From positions 12,353 to 76,352 of the IMG/VR virus record IMGVR_UViG_3300010160_000036: 64,000 nucleotides of DNA. One strand, written 5' to 3'. The stretch is from a virus. This document shows positions 43,039 to 64,000 of the stretch, in pieces (position 1 is the first letter of the stretch; each line of letters begins with the position of its first letter). A program made the position numbers and the translations under genes. The notes beneath the pieces are model-generated. The model was not told the origin of the DNA and did not search any database. It worked only from the letters and a program-made list of their open reading frames with translations.

Positions 43039-43045
43039 CTAAATA
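43039..43045 (+). promoter_or_regulatory. Late promoter motif CTAAATA heading the modification operon
   Basis: Same motif as before the structural genes, followed by AGGAG SD and ATG 43063. Confidence 0.55.
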
Positions 43046-43062
43046 CTCTTAGGAGTACACAG

Positions 43063-45258: not shown

Positions 45259-46198
45259 TATTATTGACGTAGCAGACTTGGACTGCATTTATCTAAGTTA
45301 TGATGAGCCACAAAAAGAAGAATTTTGGCTTAAAGTAAAGAACATGGTGCCTTGGGCAAAGCGTGTTGATAATGTTAAAGGTAGTGACGCAGCACACAAG
45401 GCTGCAGGTGAAGCAAGTGATACAGAACGATTTATTCTAATTGATGGTGACAACATGCCAGAAGAAAGTTTCTTCAACATTCAGTTAGACTTTACAACTA
45501 AAGACGAAACATTTAGAAAAGCACAGTTTAGATGGAAAGCAATTAACAGTATCAATGGCTTGCGCTATGGTAATGGTGGTATGAGCAGTTGGACAAAGAC
45601 TTACGTGCGTGAAATGCAAACGCATGAGCATCAAACGGAGGGTGATGTTTCACGTATAGCTGACTTTTGTTTAGACAGCAAAGATAATCTATATTGGGCG
45701 ATGCATGATTGTTACAGTACAACATATCCTAACTATACAAGTTTTCAAGCATGGCGTGCAGGTTTCCGTGAAGGTGTTAAAATGAGTTTGAATCGAGGCG
45801 TGCGCCCAACGGTAGATGAATTCAAAGAAACAGTTGCAAGCAGAAATTTAAATAATTTGACCATCTGGCAGAACGTGGGAATAGATGTAGAGAACGGTGA
45901 GTGGGCGATCATGGGAGCACGTATGGGAACTCATATGACTATGCTAACTGATTGGGACGTACATAATGTTCAATGGTTTGATAACTATCCTGCAATGTGG
46001 GAAACAGTTAAAGATGAAGACCCACTAGAACTATCAGAATCATATGGTGTTGAACTAAGTACCAAACTAGGACTACCTATGTGTGTGTTAGATAGAGAAC
46101 AAAGTAAATTCTTTAAACGTCATTATGGATCAAACTTTCATAACAAAGGTCCATTAGTAACTGAGATGGAAGTGATTCGTAAGATTGAAGGTTGGTAA
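45245..46198 (+). CDS. GT-A fold nucleotide-sugar transferase-like protein
   Basis: SYDEP...AH..A....FILIDGDN (DxD) pattern. Confidence 0.55.
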   Translation: MSLDDIIDVADLDCIYLSYDEPQKEEFWLKVKNMVPWAKRVDNVKGSDAAHKAAGEASDTERFILIDGDNMPEESFFNIQLDFTTKDETFRKAQFRWKAINSINGLRYGNGGMSSWTKTYVREMQTHEHQTEGDVSRIADFCLDSKDNLYWAMHDCYSTTYPNYTSFQAWRAGFREGVKMSLNRGVRPTVDEFKETVASRNLNNLTIWQNVGIDVENGEWAIMGARMGTHMTMLTDWDVHNVQWFDNYPAMWETVKDEDPLELSESYGVELSTKLGLPMCVLDREQSKFFKRHYGSNFHNKGPLVTEMEVIRKIEGW

Positions 46199-46860
46199 TG
46201 CAATTATATGATCCATCTAAGAAAGGTACAATCGTAGTTGGACATATGCGTTCAGGTTCTCAATATTTATTGAGTCTAGTTAAACTAGAATTGCAAAAAA
46301 ATAATGTTGAATTTGATGACAACGGAGAATACTTTAAAGATATATTCAGTGCCATTAGATATACTGATAATAGTTACTCATTCTTAAATGTTATTGACAA
46401 AATAAAAGAACAGGACATTGGTACTAATTATAGTGTGGGTACTATTGTCTATCCTAATAGCTTAGATATGATTAGTCAGCATAAGTCAAATTATAATTAT
46501 TTTTCTAATAATTATCATCTTATTAAAATGATTAGAAAAGATGTTATGGCACAATTTATGTCATACATGATATTTATTGAATCAAAGGCACTACATAGCG
46601 GTATAAAATCAATAGACGAAGTTAAAATAAATACTCCTTATACAGCAGGCAGAATTCATATAATATATTATTTAAATAAACTATTAGAATTGGACAGATT
46701 TAAGACTGATACAACTATATACTATGAAGATTTACCGCACTTACCCACACCAGGTCTAACAAAAAATAATTATAATATGACTCCTAAAGAATTTTTTAAA
46801 AATTACGATGATATTGCAAATCAAATTAACGAATTAAATATAACACATTATGAGCGGTGA
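46192..46860 (+). CDS. Sulfotransferase-like protein (P-loop PAPS-binding)
   Basis: 5'-PSB-like HMRSGSQYL, 3'-PB-like IRKDVMAQFMS, C-terminal IYYEDL. Confidence 0.6.
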   Translation: MVMQLYDPSKKGTIVVGHMRSGSQYLLSLVKLELQKNNVEFDDNGEYFKDIFSAIRYTDNSYSFLNVIDKIKEQDIGTNYSVGTIVYPNSLDMISQHKSNYNYFSNNYHLIKMIRKDVMAQFMSYMIFIESKALHSGIKSIDEVKINTPYTAGRIHIIYYLNKLLELDRFKTDTTIYYEDLPHLPTPGLTKNNYNMTPKEFFKNYDDIANQINELNITHYER

Positions 46861-48415
46861 ATACGATCAATTCGCTAGAGATATGCGTGACCGCTTGAAT
46901 GCGGTAAGTCCATCACTATGTCTTGCTAAGTGGCAACAAGTTTCTATACACTTACCTAGTGGATTGACACAGAGTTGCTATCACCCACCTACTCATAAAA
47001 TACCTCTAGAGTTATTGAAAGATAAGCCTAGCGTATTACACAACACCCCAATTAAAATACATGAACGTAAGCAAATGCTTGAGGGAAAAAGACCTGAAGG
47101 TTGTAGTTATTGCTGGAAAGTAGAAGATGCTAAGAGTGATGATCCTAAAGGTCATATGAGTGACAGACATTATCGTAGCAGTGAATGGTGGAATGCACCC
47201 ACATTTGAAGAAGTAACTCAAAACAAGTTTGATTATGATGTTGTCCCTCGATATGTAGAAGTTAACTTTAATCAAGCATGTAACTTTAAGTGTATGTATT
47301 GTAGTCCTCATCTTTCTAGTAGTTGGGAAGAAGAGGTTAAAAAGCACGGTGGTTATCAATTAACCGGTATGATACATAATAACTTAGAAGCATTAGAACA
47401 AAAAGGAATGATGCCACTCAAGGTTGCAAATAAAGACAACCCCTATGTTGAAGCATTCTGGCAATGGTTTCCTGAAATCTATCGCAAATTACGGGTGTTC
47501 AGAATGACAGGTGGCGAGCCACTTATGGACAAAAACACATTCAAAGTGTTAGATTATGTAAATGAAAATCCTCATGGTCAACTTGAAGTAAGTATAACAA
47601 GTAATATGTGTCCGCCGGATCAAAAATTGTTTGATAGGTTTGTGGATAAAGTCAAAGCACTAGAAGAACTACGTACCTACGAAGATAAAGAAAACTTCAA
47701 TGTACATAGCGGTAACAACTGGTATGTAGACAAAGGATTCAAGCACTTTTGGTTGTTTGTATCATTAGACGGCTTTGGTGAGCAAGCAGAATATATGAGA
47801 ACTGGATTAGAGTTCGAACGCATGTTGAATAACGTTAGAACTTTCTTACGTGAAACAAAATATTCTACTGTGAGTTTTATTAACACATTCAATATCATGT
47901 CTATACCAAGTCTGCACAATTTCCTAGCTATGGTTTTAGAATTACGGGCAGAGTTTGGTGGAAGAAGCCAAGTTGAGTTTGAGATTAGTCCTGATCAAAC
48001 TGAGACTGAAAAAGAGAACAACATTGTTCACAAAGTTTATACCCAAAAAAAATATCAACGTGTATTCTTTGATATTCCAATACTAAGATATCCACCTTGG
48101 TTCAACATTCAGAATGCAGGACTATATGGTATCGATGAAGTAGAACGTTGTCTAAAGTATATGGAAGACAACGTACAAGGTGATGACTATCTGGAAACAT
48201 TTGAGGGATTTAAACCGTATGAGATATTGAAAATTAAACGAGACCTTGCTATAATGAAAGAATCTCTACCTCAAGATCAATTACTACTAAATAAAAAGAA
48301 CTTCTATATGTTCATCACTGAATATGATAGACGCAGGCAGACTAATTTTATGGAAACGTTTCCGGAACTAAAAAGTTACTGGAGAGAATGTATCAAAGCA
48401 CACACCAAACATTAA
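46850..48415 (+). CDS. Radical SAM enzyme 1, N-terminal twitch-like domain (C/H type)
   Basis: CNFKCMYC, TGGEP; N-terminal CLAKW..SCYH..CSYCW. Confidence 0.92.
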   Translation: MSGEYDQFARDMRDRLNAVSPSLCLAKWQQVSIHLPSGLTQSCYHPPTHKIPLELLKDKPSVLHNTPIKIHERKQMLEGKRPEGCSYCWKVEDAKSDDPKGHMSDRHYRSSEWWNAPTFEEVTQNKFDYDVVPRYVEVNFNQACNFKCMYCSPHLSSSWEEEVKKHGGYQLTGMIHNNLEALEQKGMMPLKVANKDNPYVEAFWQWFPEIYRKLRVFRMTGGEPLMDKNTFKVLDYVNENPHGQLEVSITSNMCPPDQKLFDRFVDKVKALEELRTYEDKENFNVHSGNNWYVDKGFKHFWLFVSLDGFGEQAEYMRTGLEFERMLNNVRTFLRETKYSTVSFINTFNIMSIPSLHNFLAMVLELRAEFGGRSQVEFEISPDQTETEKENNIVHKVYTQKKYQRVFFDIPILRYPPWFNIQNAGLYGIDEVERCLKYMEDNVQGDDYLETFEGFKPYEILKIKRDLAIMKESLPQDQLLLNKKNFYMFITEYDRRRQTNFMETFPELKSYWRECIKAHTKH

Positions 48416-48423
48416 GGAATAAA

Positions 48424-49947
48424 ATGGCAGGCAAGAAACACGAAGAATCATTTGCACAATATAAATCACGACTTATTGACCCAATTAGTGACAGTTATTG
48501 TGCCGCTAAATGGTTGAATGCTACAATTTGGCTAGGTAACGGACAAACTACTAGTTGTCATCACCCATTAGGTCATCAAATTGACGCAAAAGAATTACTC
48601 ACAAATCCGTCTGCAATTCACAATACGCCGCACAAGAAACTAATGCGTAAGATGATGCAGGAAGGTCAGCGCCCTCAAGAATGTGAATATTGCTGGAAGA
48701 TTGAAGACATTGGTCGGGATAACATGAGTGACCGTGTTTATAAAACTGCTGTATTCGAAGAATCAGATATTCTTAAAACTGCTACCGCTGATTGGCAAGA
48801 GAATACGATGTTAAAAACATTAGAGATTTCTTTTGATCGTACTTGTAATTTTGCTTGTTCATATTGCAACCCTTCGTTTAGTACAACATGGGTTAAAGAC
48901 ATTCACAAATTTGGCCCATATCGTAACATTGACGGTGATGCACGTAGTCACTTTATTAATGAAGCTGACCATGCTAAACCACTACCGGAAGATATTAACC
49001 CATACAGTCAAGCGTTCTGGCGTTGGTGGGAAGAAGGTCTTGCAGACAATTTAGAAGAAATTCGCATTACGGGTGGTGAACCACTTATGGCTCCCGGTGT
49101 TTGGAAGTTGTTTGAGTGGTTTCGTAATAACCAAGAACGGGCGATAAATCGTCCAGATGGTAAGGTATTGCGCTATGCTATCAATAGTAACTTAGTTCCT
49201 AAAGATGATATTATGGACAAATTGATAGAGTACAGTCAGTTTGTTCCTTACATGGAAGTCTATACAAGTTGTGAATCATTTGGTGCTCATGCTGAATACA
49301 TTCGTGATGGACTTGATTGTAACAAATGGATTCATAACTTAGGTAGATTACACACTGAAGGTAATATTAAAAAGACACACATGATGATGACTATCAACAG
49401 CTTGTGTTTGGCTAGCATTGTACAATTTATGGACCAGATGATGGAATTTAAAAAGATTCATAATACAGTTTATCCCACAATGAGTTTGAACATCTTGCGT
49501 TTCCCTAGCTTTCAAAGTTGTGCTATGCTGCCAACAGAGATTCGTCAGAAATATAAAGACCTGCTACAAGTATGGTTAGACAATCAGATTGCTATGGATT
49601 TCCGCACTACTGATGGTAAACAAATGTTTATGAGCATTGAACGTGAACAAACACAACGATTGATTGACTACCTTGACGTTATCAAGACACCACACAAGAA
49701 TGTTAAAGACATTGAACAGAATCGTAGAGACTTTAAGCAGTTCTATGCTCAGTATGATGTCCGTCGTGGTAAAAGCTTCCGTAATACTTTCCCACCAGAG
49801 TTTGTTGCATTCTACGATAGTATTCAAACAGAGTTACCAACGGCGGATGAAATCATCACACAGAATTATCGTCAAGGGGTTGATTTAATCCCTGATCATC
49901 CACCGGAAGATCCTAGTAAAGATGTATTCTTTAACCCAGATTTATAA
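48424..49947 (+). CDS. Radical SAM enzyme 2, N-terminal twitch-like domain (C/H type)
   Basis: CNFACSYC, TGGEP; CAAKW..SCHH..CEYCW. ATG 48424 follows a TAAGGA SD. Confidence 0.92.
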   Translation: MAGKKHEESFAQYKSRLIDPISDSYCAAKWLNATIWLGNGQTTSCHHPLGHQIDAKELLTNPSAIHNTPHKKLMRKMMQEGQRPQECEYCWKIEDIGRDNMSDRVYKTAVFEESDILKTATADWQENTMLKTLEISFDRTCNFACSYCNPSFSTTWVKDIHKFGPYRNIDGDARSHFINEADHAKPLPEDINPYSQAFWRWWEEGLADNLEEIRITGGEPLMAPGVWKLFEWFRNNQERAINRPDGKVLRYAINSNLVPKDDIMDKLIEYSQFVPYMEVYTSCESFGAHAEYIRDGLDCNKWIHNLGRLHTEGNIKKTHMMMTINSLCLASIVQFMDQMMEFKKIHNTVYPTMSLNILRFPSFQSCAMLPTEIRQKYKDLLQVWLDNQIAMDFRTTDGKQMFMSIEREQTQRLIDYLDVIKTPHKNVKDIEQNRRDFKQFYAQYDVRRGKSFRNTFPPEFVAFYDSIQTELPTADEIITQNYRQGVDLIPDHPPEDPSKDVFFNPDL

Positions 49948-51344
49948 TGACAAACAAAATAATCCCTGTATGGGAACACGCTAAGCCGCACAAAGATAGT
50001 AAGAACAAGGTGTTCTGTATGGCACCTTGGACTCATACTTATATCAGTCCGCAATCTGAAAGACGATTGTGCTGTGCCTCACGTGAAGAACACTCATTTC
50101 AAAAACAATATATTGATAGTAGTAACGATTCAAAGTATGGAACTGTTACTGAAAGTAAGACAGCACTAGATGACTACCAACCAGTAAGTTTAAAAGAACA
50201 CTGGAATAGTGAATACATGAAAGACATTCGTGTGAAGCTAATGCGCGGCGAAGAGATTCCTCAATGTGATGTATGCAACAAGAACTTGTTGATGGAAGGT
50301 TATAGTTATCGTGGCTGGTTTACCGGCACCCTATTCAAAGATAAGATAGAAGAAGCTTTTGATAAGACAGATGACACTGGTTATACAACAATGGAACCAA
50401 TAAGTTTTGATTATCGCTTTAGTAATCTATGTAACTTTAAGTGCCGTATGTGCGGTGAGCAATTATCTAGTTCATGGGAAACTGAAAAGAAAGTAAATAA
50501 TCTTTGGAACGAAAAGAATCAACCATTCATGATTCCTGAAATCAAATCAGCAATGAAAACTTTCCAAGAAGAAGTTGTTGAAGTTGAATTTCGTGATGCA
50601 GTAAGTCGTGGCATTGTAGAAGAAATGTATTGGGTCGGTGGTGAGCCATTAATGTACGATATTCACTGGTGGACACTAGAAGAAATGTTAAAAAATGGTT
50701 CTTCTAAGAATTGCTACATGCGTTATAATAGTAATTTAAGTCGTGTTCAATTTGGTCAAAAGAATCTGTATGATTATCTTCCATTGTACAAAGATTGGAT
50801 GATGTGTGCTAGCATTGATGGTACAGGCGAGATTGTAGAATACATTCGCACGGGTATCAAGTGGGACAAATGGCTTGAAAATTTTAAGAAAGGTCTAGAA
50901 CTACCCAATGGCAAAGACAAGATGATACTTGACTTGACATTAACCGCACCCGGTATGTTCTCGCTTAAAGAGTTGTTTGACTTGAGTATTGAGTTAGATG
51001 TTAAAATTGAAACTAAAACGACATTTGGCTTTCATGCTGATATTATGTGGACCCCATTAAGTTGGCCACGTGAAATATTAGACGAAGTGATTGATGATAT
51101 CCTTGCATATATTACACCACGCGCTACTTGGAAGCAAGCAACATTAATTGGTAACTTAGAAGCACTAAAGAATACACGTAAGACACATGAAGAAGAATGG
51201 CCTGATACTTATAAGCAAGCCGCATTGAACGGCAAGAATTGGGTCAAGAGATTAGAAAGTATCCGTGGAGATACAGATGTTACAATGCGTAGTATATACA
51301 GTCGCAATTCAAAACTATTGCAATGGTGGGACAACATAGGATGA
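49947..51344 (+). CDS. Radical SAM enzyme 3, N-terminal twitch-like domain (CC type)
   Basis: CNFKCRMC, VGGEP; CMAPW..LCC..CDVC. Confidence 0.92.
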   Translation: MTNKIIPVWEHAKPHKDSKNKVFCMAPWTHTYISPQSERRLCCASREEHSFQKQYIDSSNDSKYGTVTESKTALDDYQPVSLKEHWNSEYMKDIRVKLMRGEEIPQCDVCNKNLLMEGYSYRGWFTGTLFKDKIEEAFDKTDDTGYTTMEPISFDYRFSNLCNFKCRMCGEQLSSSWETEKKVNNLWNEKNQPFMIPEIKSAMKTFQEEVVEVEFRDAVSRGIVEEMYWVGGEPLMYDIHWWTLEEMLKNGSSKNCYMRYNSNLSRVQFGQKNLYDYLPLYKDWMMCASIDGTGEIVEYIRTGIKWDKWLENFKKGLELPNGKDKMILDLTLTAPGMFSLKELFDLSIELDVKIETKTTFGFHADIMWTPLSWPREILDEVIDDILAYITPRATWKQATLIGNLEALKNTRKTHEEEWPDTYKQAALNGKNWVKRLESIRGDTDVTMRSIYSRNSKLLQWWDNIG

Positions 51345-52519
51345 GTAATACATTATGCGTATTACCCTGGATGCATCTAGCAACACATCCAAACGGGGGC
51401 GCAAGCCTCTGTTGCCGTAGCAACCACACAGACGCAGTTAGTTGGGCAAAAAAATCTAACACACATAATCTTGTTATGTTAGATAACGATAGTGTGGAAG
51501 ATATAATGAACAGCGAGAAGTTCGTTGAAGTTAGACAAGCAATGATTGATGGTAAACGACCTGTTGAATGTGAAGGTTGTTGGAAAGATGAAGATGCTGG
51601 CATTAAAAGTAAACGCCAGTACGAGAATGAGCGTTGGGCACACATTATTCCTAAACTTGAACAAACGGCAAAGCTCAGTGATATCAACTTAATATATGTG
51701 GAACTACGTTTGGGTAATGTGTGCAACAATGCCTGCTTAACTTGCAACAGTTATAGCAGTACTAAATGGTATCCTGATGAGAAAAAGATTGCTAACGTTT
51801 TACCCTGGTTCAAACTACGTGCAATGGAGAACTTCAAATGGTTTGAAAATGAAAATTTCTATCGGGATTTAGCAAACAGTAGTCAATCTGTAGAAGAAAT
51901 CTATATCAATGGTGGCGAACCTACATTAATTAAGGCTCACTTTGAATACTTGAAACATTTGATTACATTGGGTACATCACAGAACGTACATCTTGTGTAT
52001 AGTCTAAACATGATGGATATACCTGACAGATTGATTGAGTTATGGAAAGAATTCAAACAAGTTACAGTCAACGCAAGTATTGATGATTTGGGCAATCGTA
52101 ACTATTACATACGTTATCCTACACAATGGGAAGAGACGGTTGCAAGTATTGAGAAACTGACTAAGCTACCTAACTTAAATTGGCATGTTACTCAGACTGT
52201 TAGTATTCTTAACATCTACCATTTAGCAGAGTTTGGTAATTGGTTAGAAACTAACTATAACAAAACACCTCATCATAACTATGTATTGTACCCGGACTAT
52301 TTGAGTCTTGCAACATTGCCTGATTTCTATAAAGAAGAACTACGTAGTCATTATGCAAATAGGTTACATGAATGGCAACGTAAAGATTTATTGAATAAAT
52401 TACACGAACCGTACCAACCTAACTTGCTACAAAAAGCAAAAGAGTTTATAATAGCAGTTGATAACGCACGTGGGTTAGACTATAAAAATTATATACCAGA
52501 ATTAAAAGAAATATTATGA
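51341..52519 (+). CDS. Radical SAM enzyme 4, N-terminal twitch-like domain (CC type)
   Basis: CNNACLTC, NGGEP; CVLPW..LCC..CEGCW. The ATGA overlap supports start 51341. Confidence 0.92.
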   Translation: MSNTLCVLPWMHLATHPNGGASLCCRSNHTDAVSWAKKSNTHNLVMLDNDSVEDIMNSEKFVEVRQAMIDGKRPVECEGCWKDEDAGIKSKRQYENERWAHIIPKLEQTAKLSDINLIYVELRLGNVCNNACLTCNSYSSTKWYPDEKKIANVLPWFKLRAMENFKWFENENFYRDLANSSQSVEEIYINGGEPTLIKAHFEYLKHLITLGTSQNVHLVYSLNMMDIPDRLIELWKEFKQVTVNASIDDLGNRNYYIRYPTQWEETVASIEKLTKLPNLNWHVTQTVSILNIYHLAEFGNWLETNYNKTPHHNYVLYPDYLSLATLPDFYKEELRSHYANRLHEWQRKDLLNKLHEPYQPNLLQKAKEFIIAVDNARGLDYKNYIPELKEIL

Positions 52520-53802
52520 TACCAATTATACCCGATAAAATTAAAGATTCATTCTGTTCAGCTAAATGGTTGATGGCTACTATGCACTTTGGTATGGGTG
52601 AAAATCACTCATGCTATCACCCACCTATACATCGTTGGAACTTAGAAGATGTAAAACGTGATCCTAGTATGCTTCACAACACAGCGCATAAGATTGAACA
52701 ACGCAGACAAATGATGAATGGCGAGAAGCCAAAAGAATGTTACTATTGCTTTGACATGGAAGCAATCAATCCTAATGTCATCAGCGACCGTAAACGTTTT
52801 ACCAATGAACACTATGCGATTGAACGTAGACAGGAATTAATTGATGCACCATTTGATAAACCAATAAATCCTAGTTATCTAGAGTTGAGTTTTAGTAACG
52901 TATGTAACTTTGGTTGTAGTTATTGTTCACCTGGGCAATCAAGTAAGTGGGAACAAGAAGTTCGAAAATACGGAAGCTATCCGGTTGAAGATCATACAGT
53001 ACATGCTGACAAGATGCATGATATGATCCCAGAAGATGATAATCCATACATTGATGCATTCTGGAAGTGGTTGCCTGATGCATATAAAGACTTAAAATAT
53101 TTACGCATCACCGGTGGAGAACCACTTGCTACACGTAACTTTATGAAGTTATTAGACTTTGTAGCAGTTAATCACAATCCTAATTTAACACTAGTTGTCA
53201 ATACAAATCTATCAGTGCCTGACAAGAACTTAAACATGTTCTTTGAAAAAGCAACAACACTACTAAATGCTAAGACTATCAAGGGTCTTGAAGTATACAC
53301 TAGTATGGATACATGGGGGCCTCAGGCAGAATACATACGTGACGGATTAGATATTGCACGTTGGGAAAATACAGTACGCAAAGTAAGTACAACATTTCAT
53401 GTGCCAATTCGTGTAATGGTTACATTTGGATTGATGAGCGTTTTTAACTTTCAAACGTTTGTTGAGAAAGTAATACAGATGCGTAATGAAGGTATTGATA
53501 TTATGTTCAATTGTGCTAGGCTCGTTGATCCTAAACACTTTGACTTACGTATATTACCTGATTATTGTGACACATACTTCACTAAAGTAAATTCATTTAT
53601 CATAGATAACAGTCGAGTGGTCAATGTTGAAAGAGAAACATGGCAGATGGTTTATGATTTTTGGAAAACAAGACATGATACAATGACACCTGAAGACCGT
53701 GCATGGCGCCAAGATCAATTTGTTAAATTCATCAGTGAATATGACAAGCGCAGGAATAAGAATTTTAAAGATAACTTCCCAGAACTGTTAACATGGATTT
53801 AA
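52516..53802 (+). CDS. Radical SAM enzyme 5, N-terminal twitch-like domain (C/H type)
   Basis: CNFGCSYC, TGGEP; CSAKW..SCYH..CYYC. Confidence 0.92.
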   Translation: MIPIIPDKIKDSFCSAKWLMATMHFGMGENHSCYHPPIHRWNLEDVKRDPSMLHNTAHKIEQRRQMMNGEKPKECYYCFDMEAINPNVISDRKRFTNEHYAIERRQELIDAPFDKPINPSYLELSFSNVCNFGCSYCSPGQSSKWEQEVRKYGSYPVEDHTVHADKMHDMIPEDDNPYIDAFWKWLPDAYKDLKYLRITGGEPLATRNFMKLLDFVAVNHNPNLTLVVNTNLSVPDKNLNMFFEKATTLLNAKTIKGLEVYTSMDTWGPQAEYIRDGLDIARWENTVRKVSTTFHVPIRVMVTFGLMSVFNFQTFVEKVIQMRNEGIDIMFNCARLVDPKHFDLRILPDYCDTYFTKVNSFIIDNSRVVNVERETWQMVYDFWKTRHDTMTPEDRAWRQDQFVKFISEYDKRRNKNFKDNFPELLTWI

Positions 53803-54980
53803 CACCTTTTAAAAATTGTTTAGCATTAAAAAATAGCATTTTTATTGCAAATGAAGTAAAGCCATACAGGCCTTGCTGTTGGTTTAAAACGGATATTGAT
53901 GCAACAGATATTGATGATTATAGAAACCAACTAGCTAACATAGACATTGAAAAAAACTGTGACTATTGTATTCAACAAGAAAAGGGTGGAGCTTATAGTT
54001 ATCGGCAACACTTTGTTGATATTGATGATACAGTAATAATAACTGCCTCATTTGATAATATTTGTAATTTAAAATGTATCACCTGTACTCCTAATAATAG
54101 CACACAGATACTTGCAGAGAGATTTAAATTTGAAAATAAAGCTGATGCAGAATTTAATCGTAAGTATATATTAGAAAATATTTCCAATCAAGCACCTAAG
54201 AAAATTGACTTTATTAAATTACTTTTGGCTAAAACAGAATTTAAAAAATTAAGATTTAGTATATTGGGCGGAGAACCATTAATTAATCCGGCTATATTTG
54301 AGTTTTTAGACTGGTTAGTTGAACAGCCTTATGCAAAACAAACAACAATAACAATAACAACAAACGGTACAACTTACAATGAAAAATTATTAAGATACAT
54401 TAATGTATTTGAACGAATAAATGTACAATTAAGCATTGACGGAATTGAAGAAGAATTTGAATATCTTAGATTTGGAGCATCATTTGAAACTTTAAAAAAA
54501 GTTTGTGATTCTTTTTATGACTTAACTAAAAAATATGATAATTTTTATATGGGATGTCATTATACCTTATCATGGATGAATTGTTTAGATTTTTATAAAT
54601 TTTTTAATTGGATGCAAACTAATTACCCTAATGTATCTGATATATATATTAGTAAATTGCGAGACCCTGAACCATTTTCTATTGACTTATTAGCATTAGA
54701 TATGCGAACAAAAATATATAGTGATGTTATTTCTAAAATGGATACTTCCAAAAGTCAAACATATGAAAAAACATTATTTTTATACAAAGAACACATGTTA
54801 AACACTACACACGATGTATTTGATTTAGAAAAATTTAATTTAGGAGTACAGTTACTAAATGTACACGATTTTAGACGCGGGAACAATCACATGATTGTAG
54901 TAAAAGATTTTATGAAATTTATGAATTTTGATTTTGACAAATTGGTAACAAAGCGGTGGAAAAATAAAAATGATAGATAA
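53793..54980 (+). CDS. Radical SAM enzyme 6, N-terminal twitch-like domain (CC type, shortened)
   Basis: CNLKCITC, LGGEP; CLAL..PCC..CDYC. Confidence 0.9.
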   Translation: MDLTPFKNCLALKNSIFIANEVKPYRPCCWFKTDIDATDIDDYRNQLANIDIEKNCDYCIQQEKGGAYSYRQHFVDIDDTVIITASFDNICNLKCITCTPNNSTQILAERFKFENKADAEFNRKYILENISNQAPKKIDFIKLLLAKTEFKKLRFSILGGEPLINPAIFEFLDWLVEQPYAKQTTITITTNGTTYNEKLLRYINVFERINVQLSIDGIEEEFEYLRFGASFETLKKVCDSFYDLTKKYDNFYMGCHYTLSWMNCLDFYKFFNWMQTNYPNVSDIYISKLRDPEPFSIDLLALDMRTKIYSDVISKMDTSKSQTYEKTLFLYKEHMLNTTHDVFDLEKFNLGVQLLNVHDFRRGNNHMIVVKDFMKFMNFDFDKLVTKRWKNKNDR

Positions 54981-56286
54981 AAATATTGACGAATTACCAA
55001 AAACTTTTTGTAGTGTAGCTTGGTTACAGATACACACTGAACCTGATGGCAAAGTGTTTCCTTGTTGTTATTACAGCCATGAAAGTAAACACAATCTAGG
55101 CAATTGGAACAAAGAAAAGATTGTTGACATATTTCACGGACAAAAATGGAATGAACTTAGAAAAGACTTTTTAGATGGTAAAAAGCCTACTGCTTGTACT
55201 AGGTGTTGGAAAGAAGAAGATTCTGGTATTGTGAGTATGCGCCAGCGATTTAATGAACGCTATTCAAACTTTCCAGATTATACTAATCGTAATGGATATA
55301 ATAAATTTGATGATATCGTATCTATAGGTAACAACGACGGTTCAGTAGAAGATATTAAATTAGCTACGGTAGATTTGATATTTAATAATCTATGCAATAT
55401 GAAGTGTAGAACATGCGGCCCGGGATTAAGCACAGGCTGGATACCAGACGAAATTAAATTGGGTCGCTCTAAGATACATCCAGTAACACTATCACTATTA
55501 ACAAATGAAACTGTTACTCATATGAAAGATGATTTGATAGAATTAGTTAATATGGTTGATCCATATACAGAGATTCATTTCAGTGGCGGTGAACCAATGA
55601 TGCAAGAGGATCATTACTTGTTTTTACAATTATTATTAGACATGGGCAAAACAAAAGTAAAAATAAGATATAATACTAATCTGACAATGTACTCTCTAAA
55701 AGAATATCATGCATTTGAAATGCTACAACATTTTAACAATGTATTCATTGTGGGAAGTATTGATGCCATGGGAGCACAAGGAGAGTATATACGTAAAGGT
55801 TTTAATTGGGAAAAGGCTCTTGAATGGTTAAAAACATGTAAACAATATTTACCTAATATTGATTACGGGGTTAGTGCTGTGTTTGAGTTGTTTAATGCAT
55901 CGGCCGCAGTAGACCTACACAGGTATATGTGTGAGAGTGATTTATTTAAACGTGGTGATGGATCTAATTTTGGATTTTATTTAAACACATTACATGATCC
56001 GGAATGGTTAAGAACAACGTTGTTGCCATTGGATGTTAAAAAAGTAGTTACTGAAAAAATTAACAAACATATTGAATGGTTAAATGAAACACAGCCGCAC
56101 GATATTCATTATGATGTGTATATAGATCATTGGAAAAACGCTATAACATTAATGAATAGTAAAGATGAGACCAATAATATACCCCGGTTTTATAAAGAAA
56201 CACATTTGCTAGACAGTATTCGTAACGAGAAGTTTGAAGAAGTATTTCCAGAATTACACGAAAAAATGAAACCATATGACAAATGA
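54970..56286 (+). CDS. Radical SAM enzyme 7, N-terminal twitch-like domain (CC type)
   Basis: CNMKCRTC, SGGEP; CSVAW..GKVFPCC..CTRCW. Confidence 0.92.
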   Translation: MIDKNIDELPKTFCSVAWLQIHTEPDGKVFPCCYYSHESKHNLGNWNKEKIVDIFHGQKWNELRKDFLDGKKPTACTRCWKEEDSGIVSMRQRFNERYSNFPDYTNRNGYNKFDDIVSIGNNDGSVEDIKLATVDLIFNNLCNMKCRTCGPGLSTGWIPDEIKLGRSKIHPVTLSLLTNETVTHMKDDLIELVNMVDPYTEIHFSGGEPMMQEDHYLFLQLLLDMGKTKVKIRYNTNLTMYSLKEYHAFEMLQHFNNVFIVGSIDAMGAQGEYIRKGFNWEKALEWLKTCKQYLPNIDYGVSAVFELFNASAAVDLHRYMCESDLFKRGDGSNFGFYLNTLHDPEWLRTTLLPLDVKKVVTEKINKHIEWLNETQPHDIHYDVYIDHWKNAITLMNSKDETNNIPRFYKETHLLDSIRNEKFEEVFPELHEKMKPYDK

Positions 56287-57607
56287 TTTTAATCCAGTTG
56301 AAATGGCTAAGAATAGCAAAACGTTTTGCATTTTTCCATGGATACAACAATATGTAGGACCACCGGGAGATGTTAAGCCTTGCTGTGTGTATGACAATCA
56401 AGCTGAAATAGGTAGTTTAAAAGAAAACACATTAGCAGAAATCTGGAACAACGATAAAACAAAACAAATGCGATTGAATTTTCTTAATGGAATTGAAGAA
56501 CCCAGTTGTAGTATATGTAACCGCCGCGCTGATTTGGGTCATGCACATAAGAACGAGTACAACAAAATGTTTTTTGACAATGATGAAGAAATTCAAAAAA
56601 TTGTAGCAAGTACAAATGCCGACGGATCATTGGATGAGCACAAACTATATTATATTGATGTTAGATATAATAATCTATGTAATTTAAGTTGTCGTAGTTG
56701 TGCTCCGCATTTTAGTACAAGTTGGGTAATGGATCATCGCAAGTTGTACAACTTAGATGTAAGGCGTGAAAAAGATGATGGGTTTCAATTTCCGGGTAAA
56801 ACAGAAGGCCAAGCACTAGAAGAAATACTACCACACCTAGCTACAGCAAAGATGATTTATTTTGCAGGCGGTGAGCCATTGATGCAAAAAGAACATTATG
56901 AAGTTCTTAACAAGCTAATTGAATTGGGTAATACTGATTTAGAGATACGTTACAATACAAACTTCAGCAATTTTAAATTAAAGAAATATGACAATGTATT
57001 AGAGTATTGGAAGAAGTTCTCAAATGTACACGTATATGCTAGCTTAGATGGTAGCCACGAAAGGGGTGAGTACTGGCGTAATGGCATAGATTGGAAACAA
57101 GTTGTAGCAAACCGTAAACAAATGATGGAAGAATGTCCACATGTGCATTTTATGATTTCATATACTCTAAGCTGGCCCAATGCGTTTAACTTAGTAGAGT
57201 TTCATAAAGAGTGGGTAGAATTAGGTTATCTTAGACCGGAAGACATATTGTTAAATCCATTAGACACACCACCATACTATTGTTTAAAGAACATTCCAGA
57301 TTGGAAAAAGCGTGAAATTGAAGAGGCACTACAAAAGAATATAGTTTGGCTTAAATCTTTTGGACATCCTTACGGAATCATAAGTATGTATGAAACAGCA
57401 ATTAAATTTATGTGGGACGAAAACGGACAGTATCATAATGGCATCAATGAAAGCCTGAAAGAGTTTAATAAGATTACTACACGATTGGATGAGATACGTA
57501 GCCAAAGTTTTTTTGACGTATACCCTGAGCACATGAATATGAAGAATTACCTGATTTATAATAATTTGGATGTTGAATTTAGTGACAACAAATTTAAGAA
57601 ATACTAA
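56276..57607 (+). CDS. Radical SAM enzyme 8, N-terminal twitch-like domain (CC type)
   Basis: CNLSCRSC, AGGEP; CIFPW..GDVKPCC..IGSL..CSIC. Confidence 0.92.
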   Translation: MTNDFNPVEMAKNSKTFCIFPWIQQYVGPPGDVKPCCVYDNQAEIGSLKENTLAEIWNNDKTKQMRLNFLNGIEEPSCSICNRRADLGHAHKNEYNKMFFDNDEEIQKIVASTNADGSLDEHKLYYIDVRYNNLCNLSCRSCAPHFSTSWVMDHRKLYNLDVRREKDDGFQFPGKTEGQALEEILPHLATAKMIYFAGGEPLMQKEHYEVLNKLIELGNTDLEIRYNTNFSNFKLKKYDNVLEYWKKFSNVHVYASLDGSHERGEYWRNGIDWKQVVANRKQMMEECPHVHFMISYTLSWPNAFNLVEFHKEWVELGYLRPEDILLNPLDTPPYYCLKNIPDWKKREIEEALQKNIVWLKSFGHPYGIISMYETAIKFMWDENGQYHNGINESLKEFNKITTRLDEIRSQSFFDVYPEHMNMKNYLIYNNLDVEFSDNKFKKY

Positions 57608-58860
57608 TGGACGAAAAGAAATTATTTAAGATAAGAGATGAAACAAGTAATACGTTTTGTCTTGCAAAATTCCATGAGGCAAGTATCTGGGTTTACTCAG
57701 GTAAGATTGCCAGTTGCCATTACACTCCGTTTATTCAAGTAGGTAATACAGTAGACACTTTCTACAACCCTACTGAAAAACGTGAACAACAAAAGAAAAT
57801 GTTGGCAGGAGAACAGCCACCTGCATGTGATAGTTGCTGGCGATATGAAAATTTAGGATTACGTAGTGACAGAACACGTAAGAGTTTAAGTTTCACAAAC
57901 CACTTGGCCGCAGAAGATTATAAGAATCCCAACTATGTATTCAAACCTAAAGCATTAGAGTTAGCATTTCAAAACACATGTAATCTAGCTTGTAGCTATT
58001 GTAGTCCTCAATTCAGTACTAGCTGGATTAACGATATCAAAGTGAATGGTGTATATCAAGGAATCATTACTGACGACCGTAGACACTATCAGAAAGATAT
58101 CAACGAACTCAATGAAATGATTGACCCTCCTGATATGACATTGTTCTGGGAGTGGTTTGAAAGTGTTGCTACTAGTTTAGAATCTATTCGTGTGTCAGGT
58201 GGAGAGCCATTAATGCACGAAGAAGTTTTTCGTGTATTTGAAATGATGACAGAGATGAACTCAGATATTGAATGCGTGATACACAGCAACCTTTGCCAAA
58301 AGCCTGTAATCATGGATAGATTCTTTGATAAGATTAGTGGATTGACTAATTTACGTATGAATATCAGTAATGAATCCGCTAATGAAACAGCAGAATTCAT
58401 TCGTGAAGGTATGGTCTACGCTGAATGGTTAGAAAACATTGAACGATTAGCAAACAGCACAGTTAAAGAATTTAGTGTAAGTACAACAGTAAGTGCAATC
58501 GCATTGCAATCGCTTGAACAAATGTATTTGGACATTATTACTATTCGCAACCGTTCTAAAGTTAAACCCTATATCTCTATTAATATGGTTGACAAACCAG
58601 ACTTTCAAGGATTTGCTTGCTTAACACGTGAAGAACGTGATTTCTATATTAACAAATACACTAAGTTTTATGAGTCAATCAAAGATGAGTTATTACCTGT
58701 AGAACACGAACATTGTGCTAGACTACTTAAATTCTTAGATGAAGGTTTCATTAAAGAAACTCAACCACAATTGCGTAAAGACAGTGATATATTCTTTGAA
58801 CAATATACACAACGTAGAAATAAACCAGACAATCTAGCAAAATATATAGGATTAAAATAA
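57607..58860 (+). CDS. Radical SAM enzyme 9, N-terminal twitch-like domain (C/H type)
   Basis: CNLACSYC, SGGEP; CLAKF..SCHY..CDSCW. Confidence 0.92.
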   Translation: MDEKKLFKIRDETSNTFCLAKFHEASIWVYSGKIASCHYTPFIQVGNTVDTFYNPTEKREQQKKMLAGEQPPACDSCWRYENLGLRSDRTRKSLSFTNHLAAEDYKNPNYVFKPKALELAFQNTCNLACSYCSPQFSTSWINDIKVNGVYQGIITDDRRHYQKDINELNEMIDPPDMTLFWEWFESVATSLESIRVSGGEPLMHEEVFRVFEMMTEMNSDIECVIHSNLCQKPVIMDRFFDKISGLTNLRMNISNESANETAEFIREGMVYAEWLENIERLANSTVKEFSVSTTVSAIALQSLEQMYLDIITIRNRSKVKPYISINMVDKPDFQGFACLTREERDFYINKYTKFYESIKDELLPVEHEHCARLLKFLDEGFIKETQPQLRKDSDIFFEQYTQRRNKPDNLAKYIGLK

Positions 58861-60032
58861 TGGAACAAATGTATGAAGTAGAAAATGTAAAAAGATTACA
58901 TATAGAATTATCTAGTAGATGTAATGCTAATTGTCCTGCATGTAGTAGAAACTATTCAGGTGGTCCTGTTGCAGATGGTTTAGAACTAACTGACTTGTCA
59001 CTAGATGACATTAAGCGTATGGTTCCCGAAGAGATAGCAAAGAATTTAATTGGTATAAATTTCTGTGGAAACGTGGGTGATCCGGGTATGGCGCCAGACT
59101 TAATACCTATATTAGAATATTTTAGAGAACATTCTCCTAAAATTGTTCAACAGCTTAGAACTAACGGTGGTATGCGTAATGAAAAATTTTGGACGTCACT
59201 GGGAAACTTCTTTGTAAATCAATCACCTGCAAGAGACAATCATTTGTTCAGCAAAGCCGGAGTTGTGTTTAGTGTGGATGGATTGGAAGATACTAATCAT
59301 ATATACAGACGAGGTGTTATTTGGGAAAAACTAATCAAAAATATGAGAGCATATAGCGCAACAGGCGCATTTGCTGTTTGGGAATGGTTGTTATTTGAAC
59401 ACAATGAGCATCAAGTTGAAGAAGCTAGAATATTATCAAAAGAATTAGGGTTTGAGTTTATTGTTAAAAATCCATTGGGATTTGGAGAGTATGAAGATAC
59501 ATTGAATGGAATTAATGTATACGGCAAAGATGGTGACTATGAATATACTATTTGGCCTTCTAAGTATACTGGTTTCAGAAAAGATCCTCCGTTTGGAAAC
59601 AAAGTTGATTTCAAATTTATGAATCAAAAAAGAATTCCTATTTTATCCGAATTTAGTAAAGAATTAGAGAAGAATTCAGCGATAGTTTGTAAGTCAATCG
59701 AACACAAAGAATCAAAAGAAATATACATATCAGCAAATGGTTATATGTTACCGTGTTGTTTCTTAGGCGGGGTGTTTGGTCAGTTTAATAGTTCATATTC
59801 TCGTCATCAATTTAACAAGATGATTAATGATTATGGATTAGAGGTGTTTAACTTAAAGAATCAATCAATATTAGACATTATTCAAGGCTCTGATTTTAGT
59901 AAGTTCTTCTTAGATGGTTGGAAAGCAGATACTATTGAGAATGGCAAACTGTTATATTGTTTAGAAACATGCGGACATAAATCTGCAATGGATAAGTTGT
60001 ATAGTAAAAAAATTATAGAGGTAAACAAATGA
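58860..60032 (+). CDS. Radical SAM enzyme 10, C-terminal twitch/SPASM-like domain
   Basis: N-terminal CNANCPAC, GNVGDP, TNG; C-terminal C..YISANGYMLPCC..CLETC. Confidence 0.92.
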   Translation: MEQMYEVENVKRLHIELSSRCNANCPACSRNYSGGPVADGLELTDLSLDDIKRMVPEEIAKNLIGINFCGNVGDPGMAPDLIPILEYFREHSPKIVQQLRTNGGMRNEKFWTSLGNFFVNQSPARDNHLFSKAGVVFSVDGLEDTNHIYRRGVIWEKLIKNMRAYSATGAFAVWEWLLFEHNEHQVEEARILSKELGFEFIVKNPLGFGEYEDTLNGINVYGKDGDYEYTIWPSKYTGFRKDPPFGNKVDFKFMNQKRIPILSEFSKELEKNSAIVCKSIEHKESKEIYISANGYMLPCCFLGGVFGQFNSSYSRHQFNKMINDYGLEVFNLKNQSILDIIQGSDFSKFFLDGWKADTIENGKLLYCLETCGHKSAMDKLYSKKIIEVNK

Positions 60033-60763
60033 AAATAGGTGTATTTGGTGATAGTTTTGCAGATAGAACGCCGTACAATCCAGAGAGCCCCTTCAAAGAA
60101 GATGAGTCGTGGATTGCCGATATGGAATCAGCCGGACACAAGATAACATCGTACGGAAAAACAGGAACTTCTACGTGGTATTCATACGAACAATTTTTAG
60201 CTCATCATGAACAATTCGAGTGGATAATATTTTGTTATTCGTCATTGCATCGTATTCATCACTTGCCTGAAGGTCTTGAAGATTTAAGTTTCTTGACATC
60301 CCCGGATGACTTGTATGCATATGGAAGAAATAAAGGATTGTCTCAGCAACAAGAACTAGAAATAGTTAGAATATTAACTGGACATATTCCAAATATTAGT
60401 CCATCGTTTGACCAATTTGTGAAACAAAAAATATTTGATGATATCAACAATATTTGCAGAAATAAAAATATTAAGTTGGTTAATTTACTAACATTTGATG
60501 ATAGGAAAGATAAAACCTATGCTATTAATTTAGATAGCCGAAGTGGAGATTGCCTATACAATTTATTTTCTGTAAGTAAAAAAGAGTTACCTACTATGGG
60601 AATATTAGATAATAGATGGTGTCATTTGTCTAAAGAGTTTAATACGATACTATCTACTATATTGTTTAATGCATTAGCAGGCGATGGTAAAACTATATTT
60701 GACTTGTATAAACATAAAGATTTTACATATGACGAAGAAATCACAGCAAGATACAATATATGA
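60029..60763 (+). CDS. SGNH/GDSL-fold hydrolase or acyltransferase-like protein
   Basis: GVFGDSF block I, G..GTS block II, C-terminal CHLS...N. Confidence 0.6.
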   Translation: MKIGVFGDSFADRTPYNPESPFKEDESWIADMESAGHKITSYGKTGTSTWYSYEQFLAHHEQFEWIIFCYSSLHRIHHLPEGLEDLSFLTSPDDLYAYGRNKGLSQQQELEIVRILTGHIPNISPSFDQFVKQKIFDDINNICRNKNIKLVNLLTFDDRKDKTYAINLDSRSGDCLYNLFSVSKKELPTMGILDNRWCHLSKEFNTILSTILFNALAGDGKTIFDLYKHKDFTYDEEITARYNI

Positions 60764-61584
60764 CAAGACGAATAGTTATAGCCGGCGATAGTTTTACGTT
60801 TGGGCATGGTTGTTCAGATAGAATATACTATTACGATGAGCAATCTGAATCATTTGTGGGGGATCCTACTCATTTTCATAATCCTAAACCTAGTGACTTC
60901 TGTTGGCCGGCATTATTACAACAAAGATATCCTGATCTAGAAGTTATTAATTTAGCCAACCCGGGTAATTCTAATCAAGGAATATTTCGTGACATAGTAA
61001 AGTATTTCAATAATAATCCGTGTAATGACAATGATATATTAATGTTTCATGGAACATTAGCTGACAGACTAGAAATCGCATTAGCTGACAACCCTGAGGT
61101 ACCTGCGTCTTGGGTTATTGGATATGACCATCAGAGTCAAATGGATAGTACTAGGGATTATAATCTAGCAAAAAAAATGTATCTTACTCATTTATACAAT
61201 GATGCTATTGGAGTTAACTTATCCATGACTGCTATGTTAGCATCATATGGGTTTGCTACCGGATTTAATATTAAATTTGTTTGGAGTTTGCCATTGATAG
61301 TAACAATAGATCAACCTAATGACCTTAAAACTCTGCTAAACTTTGACACGTTTAAATTTATTCCTCGCCGCAAATTTATGTGGAAGGGGTTTCCAATGCA
61401 TAGAATGATCTCTCCGGAATTGCACCAACACAGAGTAGATACAATTATGAATCATGACTTTTCTGGTATAAAAAATAGTGAATTCAATGCAGAATGTGTT
61501 GCACCGGATAGGCATGTCAATAACAAGGGACATTCTATCTATTTGGAAAAAGTAATACTACCCTCACTACAAAATCTTCTATAA
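60760..61584 (+). CDS. SGNH/GDSL-fold hydrolase or acyltransferase-like protein
   Basis: AGDSFTFG, NLANPGNSN, DRHVN.KGH. Confidence 0.7.
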   Translation: MTRRIVIAGDSFTFGHGCSDRIYYYDEQSESFVGDPTHFHNPKPSDFCWPALLQQRYPDLEVINLANPGNSNQGIFRDIVKYFNNNPCNDNDILMFHGTLADRLEIALADNPEVPASWVIGYDHQSQMDSTRDYNLAKKMYLTHLYNDAIGVNLSMTAMLASYGFATGFNIKFVWSLPLIVTIDQPNDLKTLLNFDTFKFIPRRKFMWKGFPMHRMISPELHQHRVDTIMNHDFSGIKNSEFNAECVAPDRHVNNKGHSIYLEKVILPSLQNLL

Positions 61585-61587
61585 ATA
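61580..61587 (+). promoter_or_regulatory. Exact T4 late promoter TATAAATA, internal to the operon
   Basis: Overlaps the upstream stop codon; ATG 61593 follows 5 nt later. Confidence 0.55.
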
Positions 61588-61592
61588 TCTAT

Positions 61593-62897
61593 ATGAAAAA
61601 AACATTTCCTATACAAAATGATGCTGCCTGCCTATATAAATGGGCATGGAGCACGTTATTCTTAAGCCGCGGCACAACTTCAAGCTGTCATCGAGGTCGT
61701 CATTGGAAATTGACAGAAGATAATTTCATGGACTTTCACAATCACCACGGTAAACTTGCTGACAGAGAAAAAATGGCAACCGGTGATTGGCCGGGCAATG
61801 GATGTGAATATTGCAGAGATGTTGAAAATGCAGGTGGTAAAAGTGATAGAACGGGATTTGTCAATGAGTCAATTGAATTGTTGCCACCTGAGTTTGAAGG
61901 ATTTGTACCCAAAGGAACTGAATTTGATCATATCCCTTTAAAAGTTAGTCCTACTTTACTTGAAGTCTATTTCAATAACGTATGCAATCAATCATGCGTA
62001 TACTGTACCCCCGGATTTAGTAGTAAGATTGAACAAGAAGTTCGTAAACATGGACCTAGTGAATTTAATAAAGATTACAGTGAATGGAATCCAAATTCAA
62101 AGTATGAATTATACAAAGAAAAGTTTTGGGAATGGATGGAAAAAAATAGTGAGCACGTGCAAATTTTACAAGTATTGGGCGGAGAGCCATTATATCAAAA
62201 AGAATTTGAACAGTGCTTAGATTTCTTTGACAAACACCCTAGACCTAATCTAGTATATCGCACATTTAGTAATTTAAAGCATGATCCAGAAAAATTCAAA
62301 GCTAAAATTCAACGTGTACAAAACCTAATAGATCAGGGCAAATTAAAACGTATGGAATTTGTCTGTAGTATTGATTGCTGGGGACCAGAGATTGAATATG
62401 TACGTGATGGATTAATATTAGTTGAGTGGGAACAAAACATGAATACATTGTTACACTCGTCAGGGGTAGGAGTATTAGTTCATGCTACACTCACTGTACT
62501 AACACTACCTACATTACATCAGTTAATAGAAAAAACAAATGAGTGGAGAAAGATTAAAGACTCGGTTGGTATTAATTGGAATACGGTAGTAAGACCGTCT
62601 ACATTTAATCCATACAATTTTGGAAAATACCTAGCACCGTTTATTGATGCGCCTATACGAGCATTAGAAAATTATAGCAACTCTGTAGAAAAAGAAAAAT
62701 TACAAACTCATTTAATGGGAATACAACAACAATTATTAACCTCCCCTGTAAACAAAAAAGAAGTCAATGATTGTGCAAATTTTTTAGATGACATAGACAA
62801 GCGAAGAAGTAGAGATTGGAGAGCAATATTCCCACAGATCGTAGAAATAGTAAATACTATTAACAAAGAGGAAACAGATTATGTTCAAGTGGATTAG
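61593..62897 (+). CDS. Radical SAM enzyme 11, N-terminal twitch-like domain (C/H type)
   Basis: CNQSCVYC, LGGEP; CLYKW..SCHR..CEYC. Confidence 0.92.
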   Translation: MKKTFPIQNDAACLYKWAWSTLFLSRGTTSSCHRGRHWKLTEDNFMDFHNHHGKLADREKMATGDWPGNGCEYCRDVENAGGKSDRTGFVNESIELLPPEFEGFVPKGTEFDHIPLKVSPTLLEVYFNNVCNQSCVYCTPGFSSKIEQEVRKHGPSEFNKDYSEWNPNSKYELYKEKFWEWMEKNSEHVQILQVLGGEPLYQKEFEQCLDFFDKHPRPNLVYRTFSNLKHDPEKFKAKIQRVQNLIDQGKLKRMEFVCSIDCWGPEIEYVRDGLILVEWEQNMNTLLHSSGVGVLVHATLTVLTLPTLHQLIEKTNEWRKIKDSVGINWNTVVRPSTFNPYNFGKYLAPFIDAPIRALENYSNSVEKEKLQTHLMGIQQQLLTSPVNKKEVNDCANFLDDIDKRRSRDWRAIFPQIVEIVNTINKEETDYVQVD

Positions 62898-62985
62898 AAA
62901 TTTATATCATAGTATAAAATCGGAAATTCGTTATCGTAAACGACTAAAAGAATTACGCAAAAGAGACCCATTTATCTATAAATGA
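62881..62985 (+). CDS. 34-aa basic peptide (not in ORF track)
   Basis: MFKWIRNLYHSIKSEIRYRKRLKELRKRDPFIYK*. GAGG SD upstream; ATGA overlap with the next gene. Confidence 0.7.
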   Translation: MFKWIRNLYHSIKSEIRYRKRLKELRKRDPFIYK

Positions 62986-63806: not shown

Positions 63807-64000
63807 ACTATATAGGAATATCCTCAGGATTTCACGATGCCGCACTAAGTGTTATAGATGACAAAGGTAATATATTGTTTGCCGGTCACAGTGAACGCTA
63901 TAATAAAGATAAACATACAAAGCACTTGTGTTATGATATAGTTGAAGATGCACTATCATATACAACCTCACGTGATATCAAGATTCATTACTATGAACGC
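63803..64000 (+). CDS. Carbamoyltransferase (NodU/CmcH/TobZ family), N-terminal part, runs off the window
   Basis: Manual translation MNYIGISSGFHDAALSVIDDKGNILFAGHSERYNKDKH matches the family's GI...HD.A......G.I....ER..K.K start; ATGA overlap. Confidence 0.85.
   Translation, partial: MNYIGISSGFHDAALSVIDDKGNILFAGHSERYNKDKHTKHLCYDIVEDALSYTTSRDIKIHYYER

Follow-up and report, generated by a model that had tools for sequence, protein, structure and literature searches.

Are the radical S-adenosylmethionine (SAM) enzymes that lie side by side in one viral gene block one kind of enzyme or several, and do they work in pairs or alone? The question is raised by a stretch of 64,000 nucleotides (the window) at the end of a 76-kb IMG/VR virus record that has a CheckV completeness of 22%. 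Eleven radical SAM open reading frames (ORFs) lie between positions 46,850 and 62,897 of the window; all are intact when translated and all are on the plus strand. Ten of them encode members of the catalogued NF033640 family that belong to two ancient subfamilies, here called A and B, and the eleventh, which starts at position 58860, is called C. We consider it probable that the ten A and B enzymes act singly on the sugar-bearing product of their operon.

Translation of the eleven ORFs reproduced exactly the split into five A, five B and one C protein that the original prediction had drawn from the motifs, and the gene order that it gave, A A B B A B B B A C - A, was correct. Proteins of type A have four N-terminal cysteines in the arrangement C-x-x-K-(W/F) ... 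S-C-(Y/H)-(H/Y/R) ... CxxC and a SAM motif of the form CxxxCxYC. Those of type B have five N-terminal cysteines, including an (L/P)-C-C sequence, and SAM motifs that end in CRMC, CLTC, CITC, CRTC or CRSC. A common pattern, C-x17/18-C ... CxxC, is present in 10/10 of these proteins, and its four cysteines are invariant and stand 90-165 residues before the CX3CX2C motif. Both CX3CX2C and the GGE SAM-binding motif are invariant across the array, and the radical SAM domain PF04055 was found, with three proteins slightly under the gathering score. An aromatic residue in the CX3CX-aromatic-C motif is usual, but not obligatory, in the radical SAM superfamily. The residue before the third cysteine of this motif is Tyr in 99% of A sequences; in B sequences it is Thr, Met, Ser, Ile or Gly and follows a conserved Arg.

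NF033640 (NCBIfam N_Twi_rSAM) describes proteins with a twitch domain first and a radical SAM core second, and has a curated cut-off of 170 bits. All ten A and B proteins score above it over nearly the full length of the model (175.5-360.4 bits), and this is the N-terminal-twitch family that the prediction had mentioned as annotated without a defined function. The genes are therefore members of a catalogued family, whose subfamily structure adds detail without amounting to a new kind of system. A literature search on N-terminal twitch and SPASM domains, NF033640 and phage glycan radical SAM enzymes found no study of the family in the library that it covered. SPASM domains with two auxiliary clusters have a seven-cysteine motif, CX9-15GX4C ... 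CX2CX5CX3C ... C. That motif is absent from the array, where the domain has four cysteines in A, five in B and five in 58860. Of the five B proteins, four match the Pfam SPASM profile at the N-terminus; none of the five A proteins does. SPASM and twitch domains have been described as C-terminal extensions (PMC9012708), and the twitch domain is N-terminal in all ten A and B proteins, unlike the C-terminal placement of the BtrN type.

The A genes are A1 (46850..48415; 283 bits against NF033640; CNFKCMYC; S-C-Y-H), which falls in the A clade of the trees described below, A2 (48388..49947, likely start 48424; 290 bits; CNFACSYC; S-C-H-H), A3 (52516..53802; 287 bits; CNFGCSYC; S-C-Y-H), A4 (57607..58860; 241 bits; CNLACSYC; S-C-H-Y) and A5 (61593..62897; 224 bits; CNQSCVYC; S-C-H-R). 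A3 is the most conserved paralogue, with at least 120 clusters at 67% identity or more, and A5 is the earliest-branching A, at the base of the A clade. The B genes begin with B1 (49947..51344; 300 bits; CNFKCRMC) and B2 (51323..52519, possible start 51341; 345 bits; CNNACLTC), both with L-C-C and with Pfam SPASM matches at residues 24-111 and 12-87, respectively. The other three have P-C-C. B3 (53793..54980; CNLKCITC) has a shortened N-terminus, scores 175.5 bits, barely above the cut-off, and lies in a separate deep B lineage of the trees. B4 (54970..56286; 346 bits; CNMKCRTC) matches SPASM at residues 14-80, over positions 1-67 of the 67 in the profile (E 2e-11), and B5 (56276..57607; 360 bits; CNLSCRSC) has an N-terminal profile that matches the BtrN twitch domain. 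The starts 48424 and 51341, used in the original prediction as gene starts, are internal Met codons of the longer ORFs; the shorter starts are plausible from relatives.

We compared the N-terminal domains with one another and with known structures. A profile of 30 B N-termini has BtrN as its sole match in the Protein Data Bank (PDB; E 3.4e-8), and the alignment places the first Cys, the hairpin P-C and the CxxC on the corresponding cysteines of BtrN. The A and B N-terminal profiles match each other in hhalign (probability 98.3%, E 1.5e-14); the A profile searched against the PDB returned nothing real, only zinc-finger noise. By these profile alignments, the N-terminal domain is a genuine twitch relative. 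AlphaFold2 models of A3 and B5 are confident, with predicted local distance difference test (pLDDT) scores of 96.4 and 93.9. The hhalign alignment, the BtrN alignment and the model strands agree on one register, in which the Ser of A corresponds to the Pro of B, the Cys of A to the first Cys of B (a ligand), and the His or Tyr of A to the second Cys of B, directly after the second ligand, where BtrN has Phe. A first register from MAFFT, which set the A Ser opposite the first B Cys, was dropped because a one-residue indel in the hairpin is called for by hhalign, by the alignment to BtrN and by the secondary structure that the models show.

The auxiliary cluster of BtrN has four Cys ligands, and BtrN carries out a two-electron oxidation of an aminocyclitol (PMC9012708). 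All four cysteines are kept in both A and B, so no ligand has been replaced. The suggestion that the two types differ by His versus Cys ligation of the auxiliary cluster thus fails as a ligand swap, but the contrast of His or Tyr with Cys is real and sits at the residue after the second ligand. From its place in the alignments, this difference may concern a second-shell or active-site residue.

How general and how old is the split? A profile search of 1.84 billion representative proteins gave 7,381 clusters (50% identity) at E values up to 1e-30. Modules were tallied among the search representatives together with 78 A-seeded and 80 B-seeded genome loci. The 568 classifiable modules comprise 282 with Tyr and without CC (A-like), 272 with CC and without the aromatic residue (B-like), 11 with both Tyr and CC, and 3 with neither. 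Across 12 related viral loci (30-85% identity) the pairing of motifs is kept in every gene but one. The motif pattern exceeds chance: the clustering of labels on trees built without the motif columns was equalled by none of 500 shuffles. A forms one side of a branch in each of three trees, two of which omitted the motif columns (SH-like approximate likelihood ratio test, SH-aLRT, 100 with the motifs, 99 and 100 without). The sole exception to placement on the A side is one His-bearing long branch. The phylogeny that the original prediction had called for therefore separates the A and B types as old clades. The 11 sequences with both Tyr and CC, mostly C-R-Y-C, are nested in B and have two or three origins. 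When the tree is rooted on 58860, B is paraphyletic and A derived, with weak support.

The paralogues in the window are only 17-34% identical to one another. The ORF at 48388 is 53% identical to a Bacteriovoracaceae gene, and that at 46850 is 52% identical to a Bdellovibrionaceae gene. Since these phage genes are nearer to bacterial relatives (52-53%) than to their siblings in the array (34% at most), the duplications long predate the phage, which fits the earlier proposal of an array expanded by old duplications. Every paralogue has its orthologues in a separate lineage that is also found in bacteria; the array was thus put together, or inherited, from old duplications and is not a recent expansion.

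Comparison of the two clades column by column shows what they share and where they part. Twenty-two columns are near-invariant in both types and 28 discriminate A from B. The shared columns are the four twitch cysteines, an Arg, E...S-R after CxxC, the SAM motif with its Asn and a Ser five residues on, GGEP, and single N, S, R, P and D positions. A is under tighter constraint than B. Its near-invariant residues, in 52516 numbering, are K17, L25, G28, S32, H35, H39, H54, T56, K59, Y77, D91, Y136, Y155, N-P-Y 176-178, W185, R197 and R412. Few residues are peculiar to B; in 56276 numbering they are P21, the extra Cys, R140, F248, W273 and N302. The position that follows the second ligand is Tyr34/His35 in 52516 and Cys37 in 56276.

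This shared core bears on the idea that the split is merely phylogenetic, with A and B running the same type of reaction at other positions or on other substrates and the motif differences being neutral or structural. The 22 common invariant positions agree with it, as do the regaining of Tyr inside B lineages that keep CC and the descent of the covariation from a single branch. The differences themselves are harder to accommodate: they lie in the SAM-binding motif and beside a cluster ligand, where changes are rarely neutral in the superfamily, and A has about 20 extra near-invariant residues that are not found in B. A further point against it is the C-type enzyme 58860, whose twitch-like domain is C-terminal and in which PCC again goes together with a non-aromatic SAM motif. 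We regard this explanation as rather unlikely.

In the reading that we favour, the ten enzymes work independently, and A and B may carry out different radical steps. Each enzyme would carry a BtrN-like twitch domain before the radical SAM barrel, with the four invariant cysteines holding one fully ligated auxiliary [4Fe-4S] cluster. Type A combines the retained aromatic residue of CxxxCxYC with a hairpin S-C-(H/Y)-H-P and the A-only His, Lys, Tyr, Trp and Arg residues, and could catalyse a BtrN-like two-electron oxidation in which a His base stands beside the electron-accepting cluster. Type B combines the C-R-(T/M/S/I/G)-C SAM motif with another Cys immediately behind the second cluster ligand; its reaction could be redox-neutral, for example an epimerisation, with the extra Cys as hydrogen-atom donor. 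The enzymes most likely act one by one on the sugar-bearing product of an operon that also has GT-A-like, sulfotransferase-like, SGNH and carbamoyltransferase genes.

In its most specific form, the subfamilies would be two mechanistic classes of glycan-editing radical SAM enzyme, with A as BtrN-like oxidases, B as epimerase-type enzymes that use a Cys hydrogen-atom donor, and a phage cassette that alternates both. The A His beside the cluster ligand, together with the A-only set of His residues, would then provide a base or an extra metal site, and B would have given up the adenine-stacking aromatic residue. If true, alternating oxidation and epimerisation would build a heavily rearranged sugar coat. 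We think this full scheme unlikely.

The C-type gene (58860..60032; CNANCPAC) encodes a protein that begins with the SAM motif, which reads C-P-A-C and has no aromatic residue. It scores 46.7 bits against the NF033640 cut-off of 170 and is not a member of the family. Pfam places Radical_SAM at residues 15-169 and SPASM at 284-350, so the C-terminal position of its auxiliary domain is as originally described. The description of this domain as the usual one holds less well: it has five cysteines, C-x21-PCC-x66-CxxxC (C277, PC299C300, C367 and C371), and is thus twitch-like and not a full seven-Cys SPASM. PCC and a non-aromatic SAM motif, both B-like states, are therefore paired in an unpermuted protein, and the Cys pattern and the pairing are kept in eight relatives (orthologues L001-L008).

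What might the enzymes act on? Downstream, the window array is followed by SGNH-like ORFs and a carbamoyltransferase that is complete in the syntenic locus L001; upstream are ORFs whose nearest named look-alikes, taken as leads only, are nucleotide-sugar transferases and a sulfotransferase. A genes in Bdellovibrionota recur beside an ABC-2 exporter pair, glycosyltransferases of the GT1 and GT2 families, a carbamoyltransferase and a LolA-like protein. B genes range more widely, over Bdellovibrionota, Bacteroidota, Elusimicrobia, Acidobacteria and others, and neighbour carbamoyltransferases, PhyH dioxygenases, B12-radical SAM enzymes, an ABC ATPase and NAD epimerase/dehydratases. A GT2 glycosyltransferase is fused to a radical SAM module in two representatives (P0051 and P0143). 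From the gene neighbourhoods and the fusions, glycan tailoring is the best-supported reading of the substrate class.

An alternative is that the enzymes are maturases of proteins or of peptides that ribosomes make and that are modified after translation (RiPPs), cross-linking or epimerising the fibre proteins, the 6145-residue protein of the window or a small peptide. Bacterial members of the family adjoin glycosyltransferases, ABC-2 exporters and sugar-nucleotide enzymes, away from fibre genes, and the direct GT2 fusions likewise point away from peptides, as does the sole sequence-level PDB relative of the twitch domain, the aminocyclitol-oxidising BtrN. A Pfam scan of the eleven proteins found no RiPP recognition element (RRE) or PqqD-like domain, although no dedicated RRE search was made. 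Maturation would nevertheless agree with the action of most characterised SPASM and twitch enzymes on peptides, with top fold matches that include SkfB, SuiB, anSME, CteB and ChlB, with the position of the array directly behind the fibre genes, with fusions of tetratricopeptide repeats (TPR) to B modules in Elusimicrobia, and with a conserved ORF of 34 residues at 62881-62985. Weighing these, we find a role in peptide maturation improbable.

Whether A and B enzymes need each other was assessed from locus content and from fusions. Among bacterial loci with full flanks (8 kb on each side for A-seeded loci), 25/30 A-seeded loci have no B gene and 30/37 B-seeded loci have no A gene, and so lack the co-occurrence expected of an obligate two-subunit enzyme. 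Among the representatives that join two or three modules in one protein, about 22 are B-B, 3-4 A-A and 2-3 mixed. Close relatives of the window array have the same five A orthologues but 5, 6 or 8 B genes, and in distant arrays two A genes stand with four or five B genes. The A genes are thus the fixed core of the arrays and the B genes their variable part. An apparent fusion of A1 and A2 in two relatives, read as an open frame of 1035 residues, proved false, as a stop codon separates the two ORFs. The record behind L008, from a related phage, has an extra family member (G003:C1:100963-102060; 235 bits) about 27 kb from its array. Obligate heteromeric A/B pairs, proposed in the original prediction, in which one type would give the other a regulatory or electron-transfer subunit, could draw on the interleaving and translational coupling of the genes, on the few mixed fusions (e.g. 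P0087 and P0007) and on bacterial loci with both types, but are highly improbable given single-type loci, mainly homotypic fusions, a ratio of A to B that varies from 5:5 to 5:8 in close relatives, and the retention of every catalytic motif (CX3CX2C, GGEP and the four twitch cysteines) in both types.

Overall, two subfamilies of singly acting, sugar-directed enzymes remain our favoured reading, and several points weigh against it. We infer cluster binding, substrate and reaction alike for NF033640 members. The coexistence of Tyr and CC in the 11 B-nested sequences means that the two traits are not mechanistically locked, and the covariation, which traces essentially to one evolutionary event, is not to be taken as co-evolution that happened repeatedly. 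The neighbours described as GT-A-like and sulfotransferase-like were recognised only as language-model look-alikes and have no match to a profile hidden Markov model (HMM). In addition, the peptide maturases SkfB, SuiB and anSME score as high in comparisons with the predicted structures as the sugar enzyme BlsE.

Several further observations concern the distribution and company of the family. Paralogues of the PhyH-type dioxygenases are abundant beside B-type genes: L126 and eight further B-seeded loci together have 33 such ORFs. Two contigs of Elusimicrobia metagenome-assembled genomes (MAGs; L139 and L152) carry tandem runs of four to six large ORFs, and the one ORF of such a run that was scanned with Pfam consists of a long TPR region and a C-terminal B-type module. 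Family members also occur on MAG contigs labelled Fischerella, Neomarinimicrobiota, Pelagibacterales, Legionellales, Rickettsiales and Betaproteobacteria (L017, L046, L075, L091, L105 and L106); three of these have phage-like A-A-B-B-B arrays, and the contigs may be mis-binned phage.

The window encodes T4-type baseplate genes (gp53, gp5-like, gp25 and gp6-like), a 6145-residue ORF and fibre-like ORFs, and a complete relative, the record behind L006, is 352 kb, which identifies a jumbo T4-like phage. The 6145-residue ORF (21587-40024) directly follows the gp6-like baseplate gene and has only faint FG-GAP and CBM_5_12 matches. Behind the tail-fibre genes, a co-directional and closely packed gene block starts at 43 kb and continues until the record ends; in the array, A genes are interspersed with B genes, with translational coupling. 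A 317-residue ORF (42060-43013), which is rich in Thr, Ser, Ala and Gly and has no family match, stands between the sugar-handling block and a fibre gene that has a Peptidase_G2/IMC chaperone domain. For the ORFs at 42060-46860, no function was given by Pfam, NCBIfam or PHROGs. Two of them (43365..44923, plus strand) are GT-A-like as leads only, in that their nearest named Atlas clusters carry Nucleotid_trans or GT8, with no Pfam match. Another (46192..46860, plus strand) is sulfotransferase-like, also as a lead only; PF09037 occurs in 12% of the members of its nearest Atlas cluster, and it has no Pfam match itself.

The remaining genes of the block are likewise on the plus strand. A putative and weak SGNH/GDSL-like protein (60029..60763) has a block I G-D-S near the N-terminus of its translation and no HMM match. 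The next ORF (60760..61584) is SGNH/GDSL-like, with a Lipase_GDSL E value of 0.003 and an orthologue in L001 that scores above the cut-off at 25.7 bits. A third SGNH-like protein is encoded at 62982..63806, and its L001 orthologue matches Lipase_GDSL below the cut-off (E 8.5e-4). The 34-residue ORF at 62881-62985 is basic and overlaps the end of 61593 and the start of this third SGNH-like gene. The window closes with the start of a carbamoyltransferase (63803..64000), cut by the end of the record, whose 66-residue piece matches Carbam_trans_N (E 0.002); its full-length syntenic counterpart in L001 matches Carbam_trans_C (2e-48) and Carbam_trans_N (4e-32). For the T4 late-promoter box TATAAATA, the window shows no enrichment, with 5 copies against 11.7 expected, and sites that resemble promoters or terminators occur in the array at the rate expected by chance. 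A megablast search of the array against deposited phages gave no match, and tblastn found only distant radical SAM genes of Vibrio and Ralstonia phages.

NF033640 is very large (the 7,381 clusters above), and its members form multi-copy arrays in abundant uncultured jumbo phages and in predatory Bdellovibrionota. Two deep and diagnosable subfamilies that work alone would make 10-14 look-alike genes tractable, and the B types offer a natural case of SAM binding without the usual aromatic residue.

How, then, do these enzymes compare with known systems? The NF033640 entry has the same order of twitch and core, but is a single subfamily entry that does not separate the A and B clades; new here are the counts behind the two clades, the alignment register at the residue that differs, the evidence on whether A and B pair, and the finding that the unpermuted neighbour is B-like in its states. 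In fold searches the models matched a range of radical SAM cores about equally well, at Z 10-13 (among them SkfB, BlsE, PFL-AE, viperin, SuiB, anSME and MoaA), with no single closest enzyme, so that structure does not choose the substrate class. The peptide enzymes anSME, SuiB, SkfB and CteB share the partial TIM-barrel core (Z 11.6-13.3), and the B N-terminus matches the same Pfam SPASM profile, but their domains are C-terminal and mostly hold two auxiliary clusters with seven or more cysteines. Several, such as SuiB and CteB, also have an N-terminal peptide-binding domain, which the array proteins, with four or five cysteines, do not have. BlsE has a similar core (Z 13.2, root-mean-square deviation 3.2 over 220 residues), as does DesII (Z 10.5), and both share the sugar-tailoring context, but they differ in domain layout and show no sequence-level relation beyond the superfamily. 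BtrN, which is 2-deoxy-scyllo-inosamine dehydrogenase (PDB 4M7S/4M7T) and the founding twitch enzyme, resembles the array enzymes in its one four-Cys auxiliary cluster, in its carbohydrate-like substrate and in the cysteines that align with the B N-terminal profile. It differs in that its twitch domain is C-terminal and has Phe after the second ligand, where B has Cys and A has His or Tyr; it is absent from the top fold hits, and its whole-protein fold is no more similar than other radical SAM cores.

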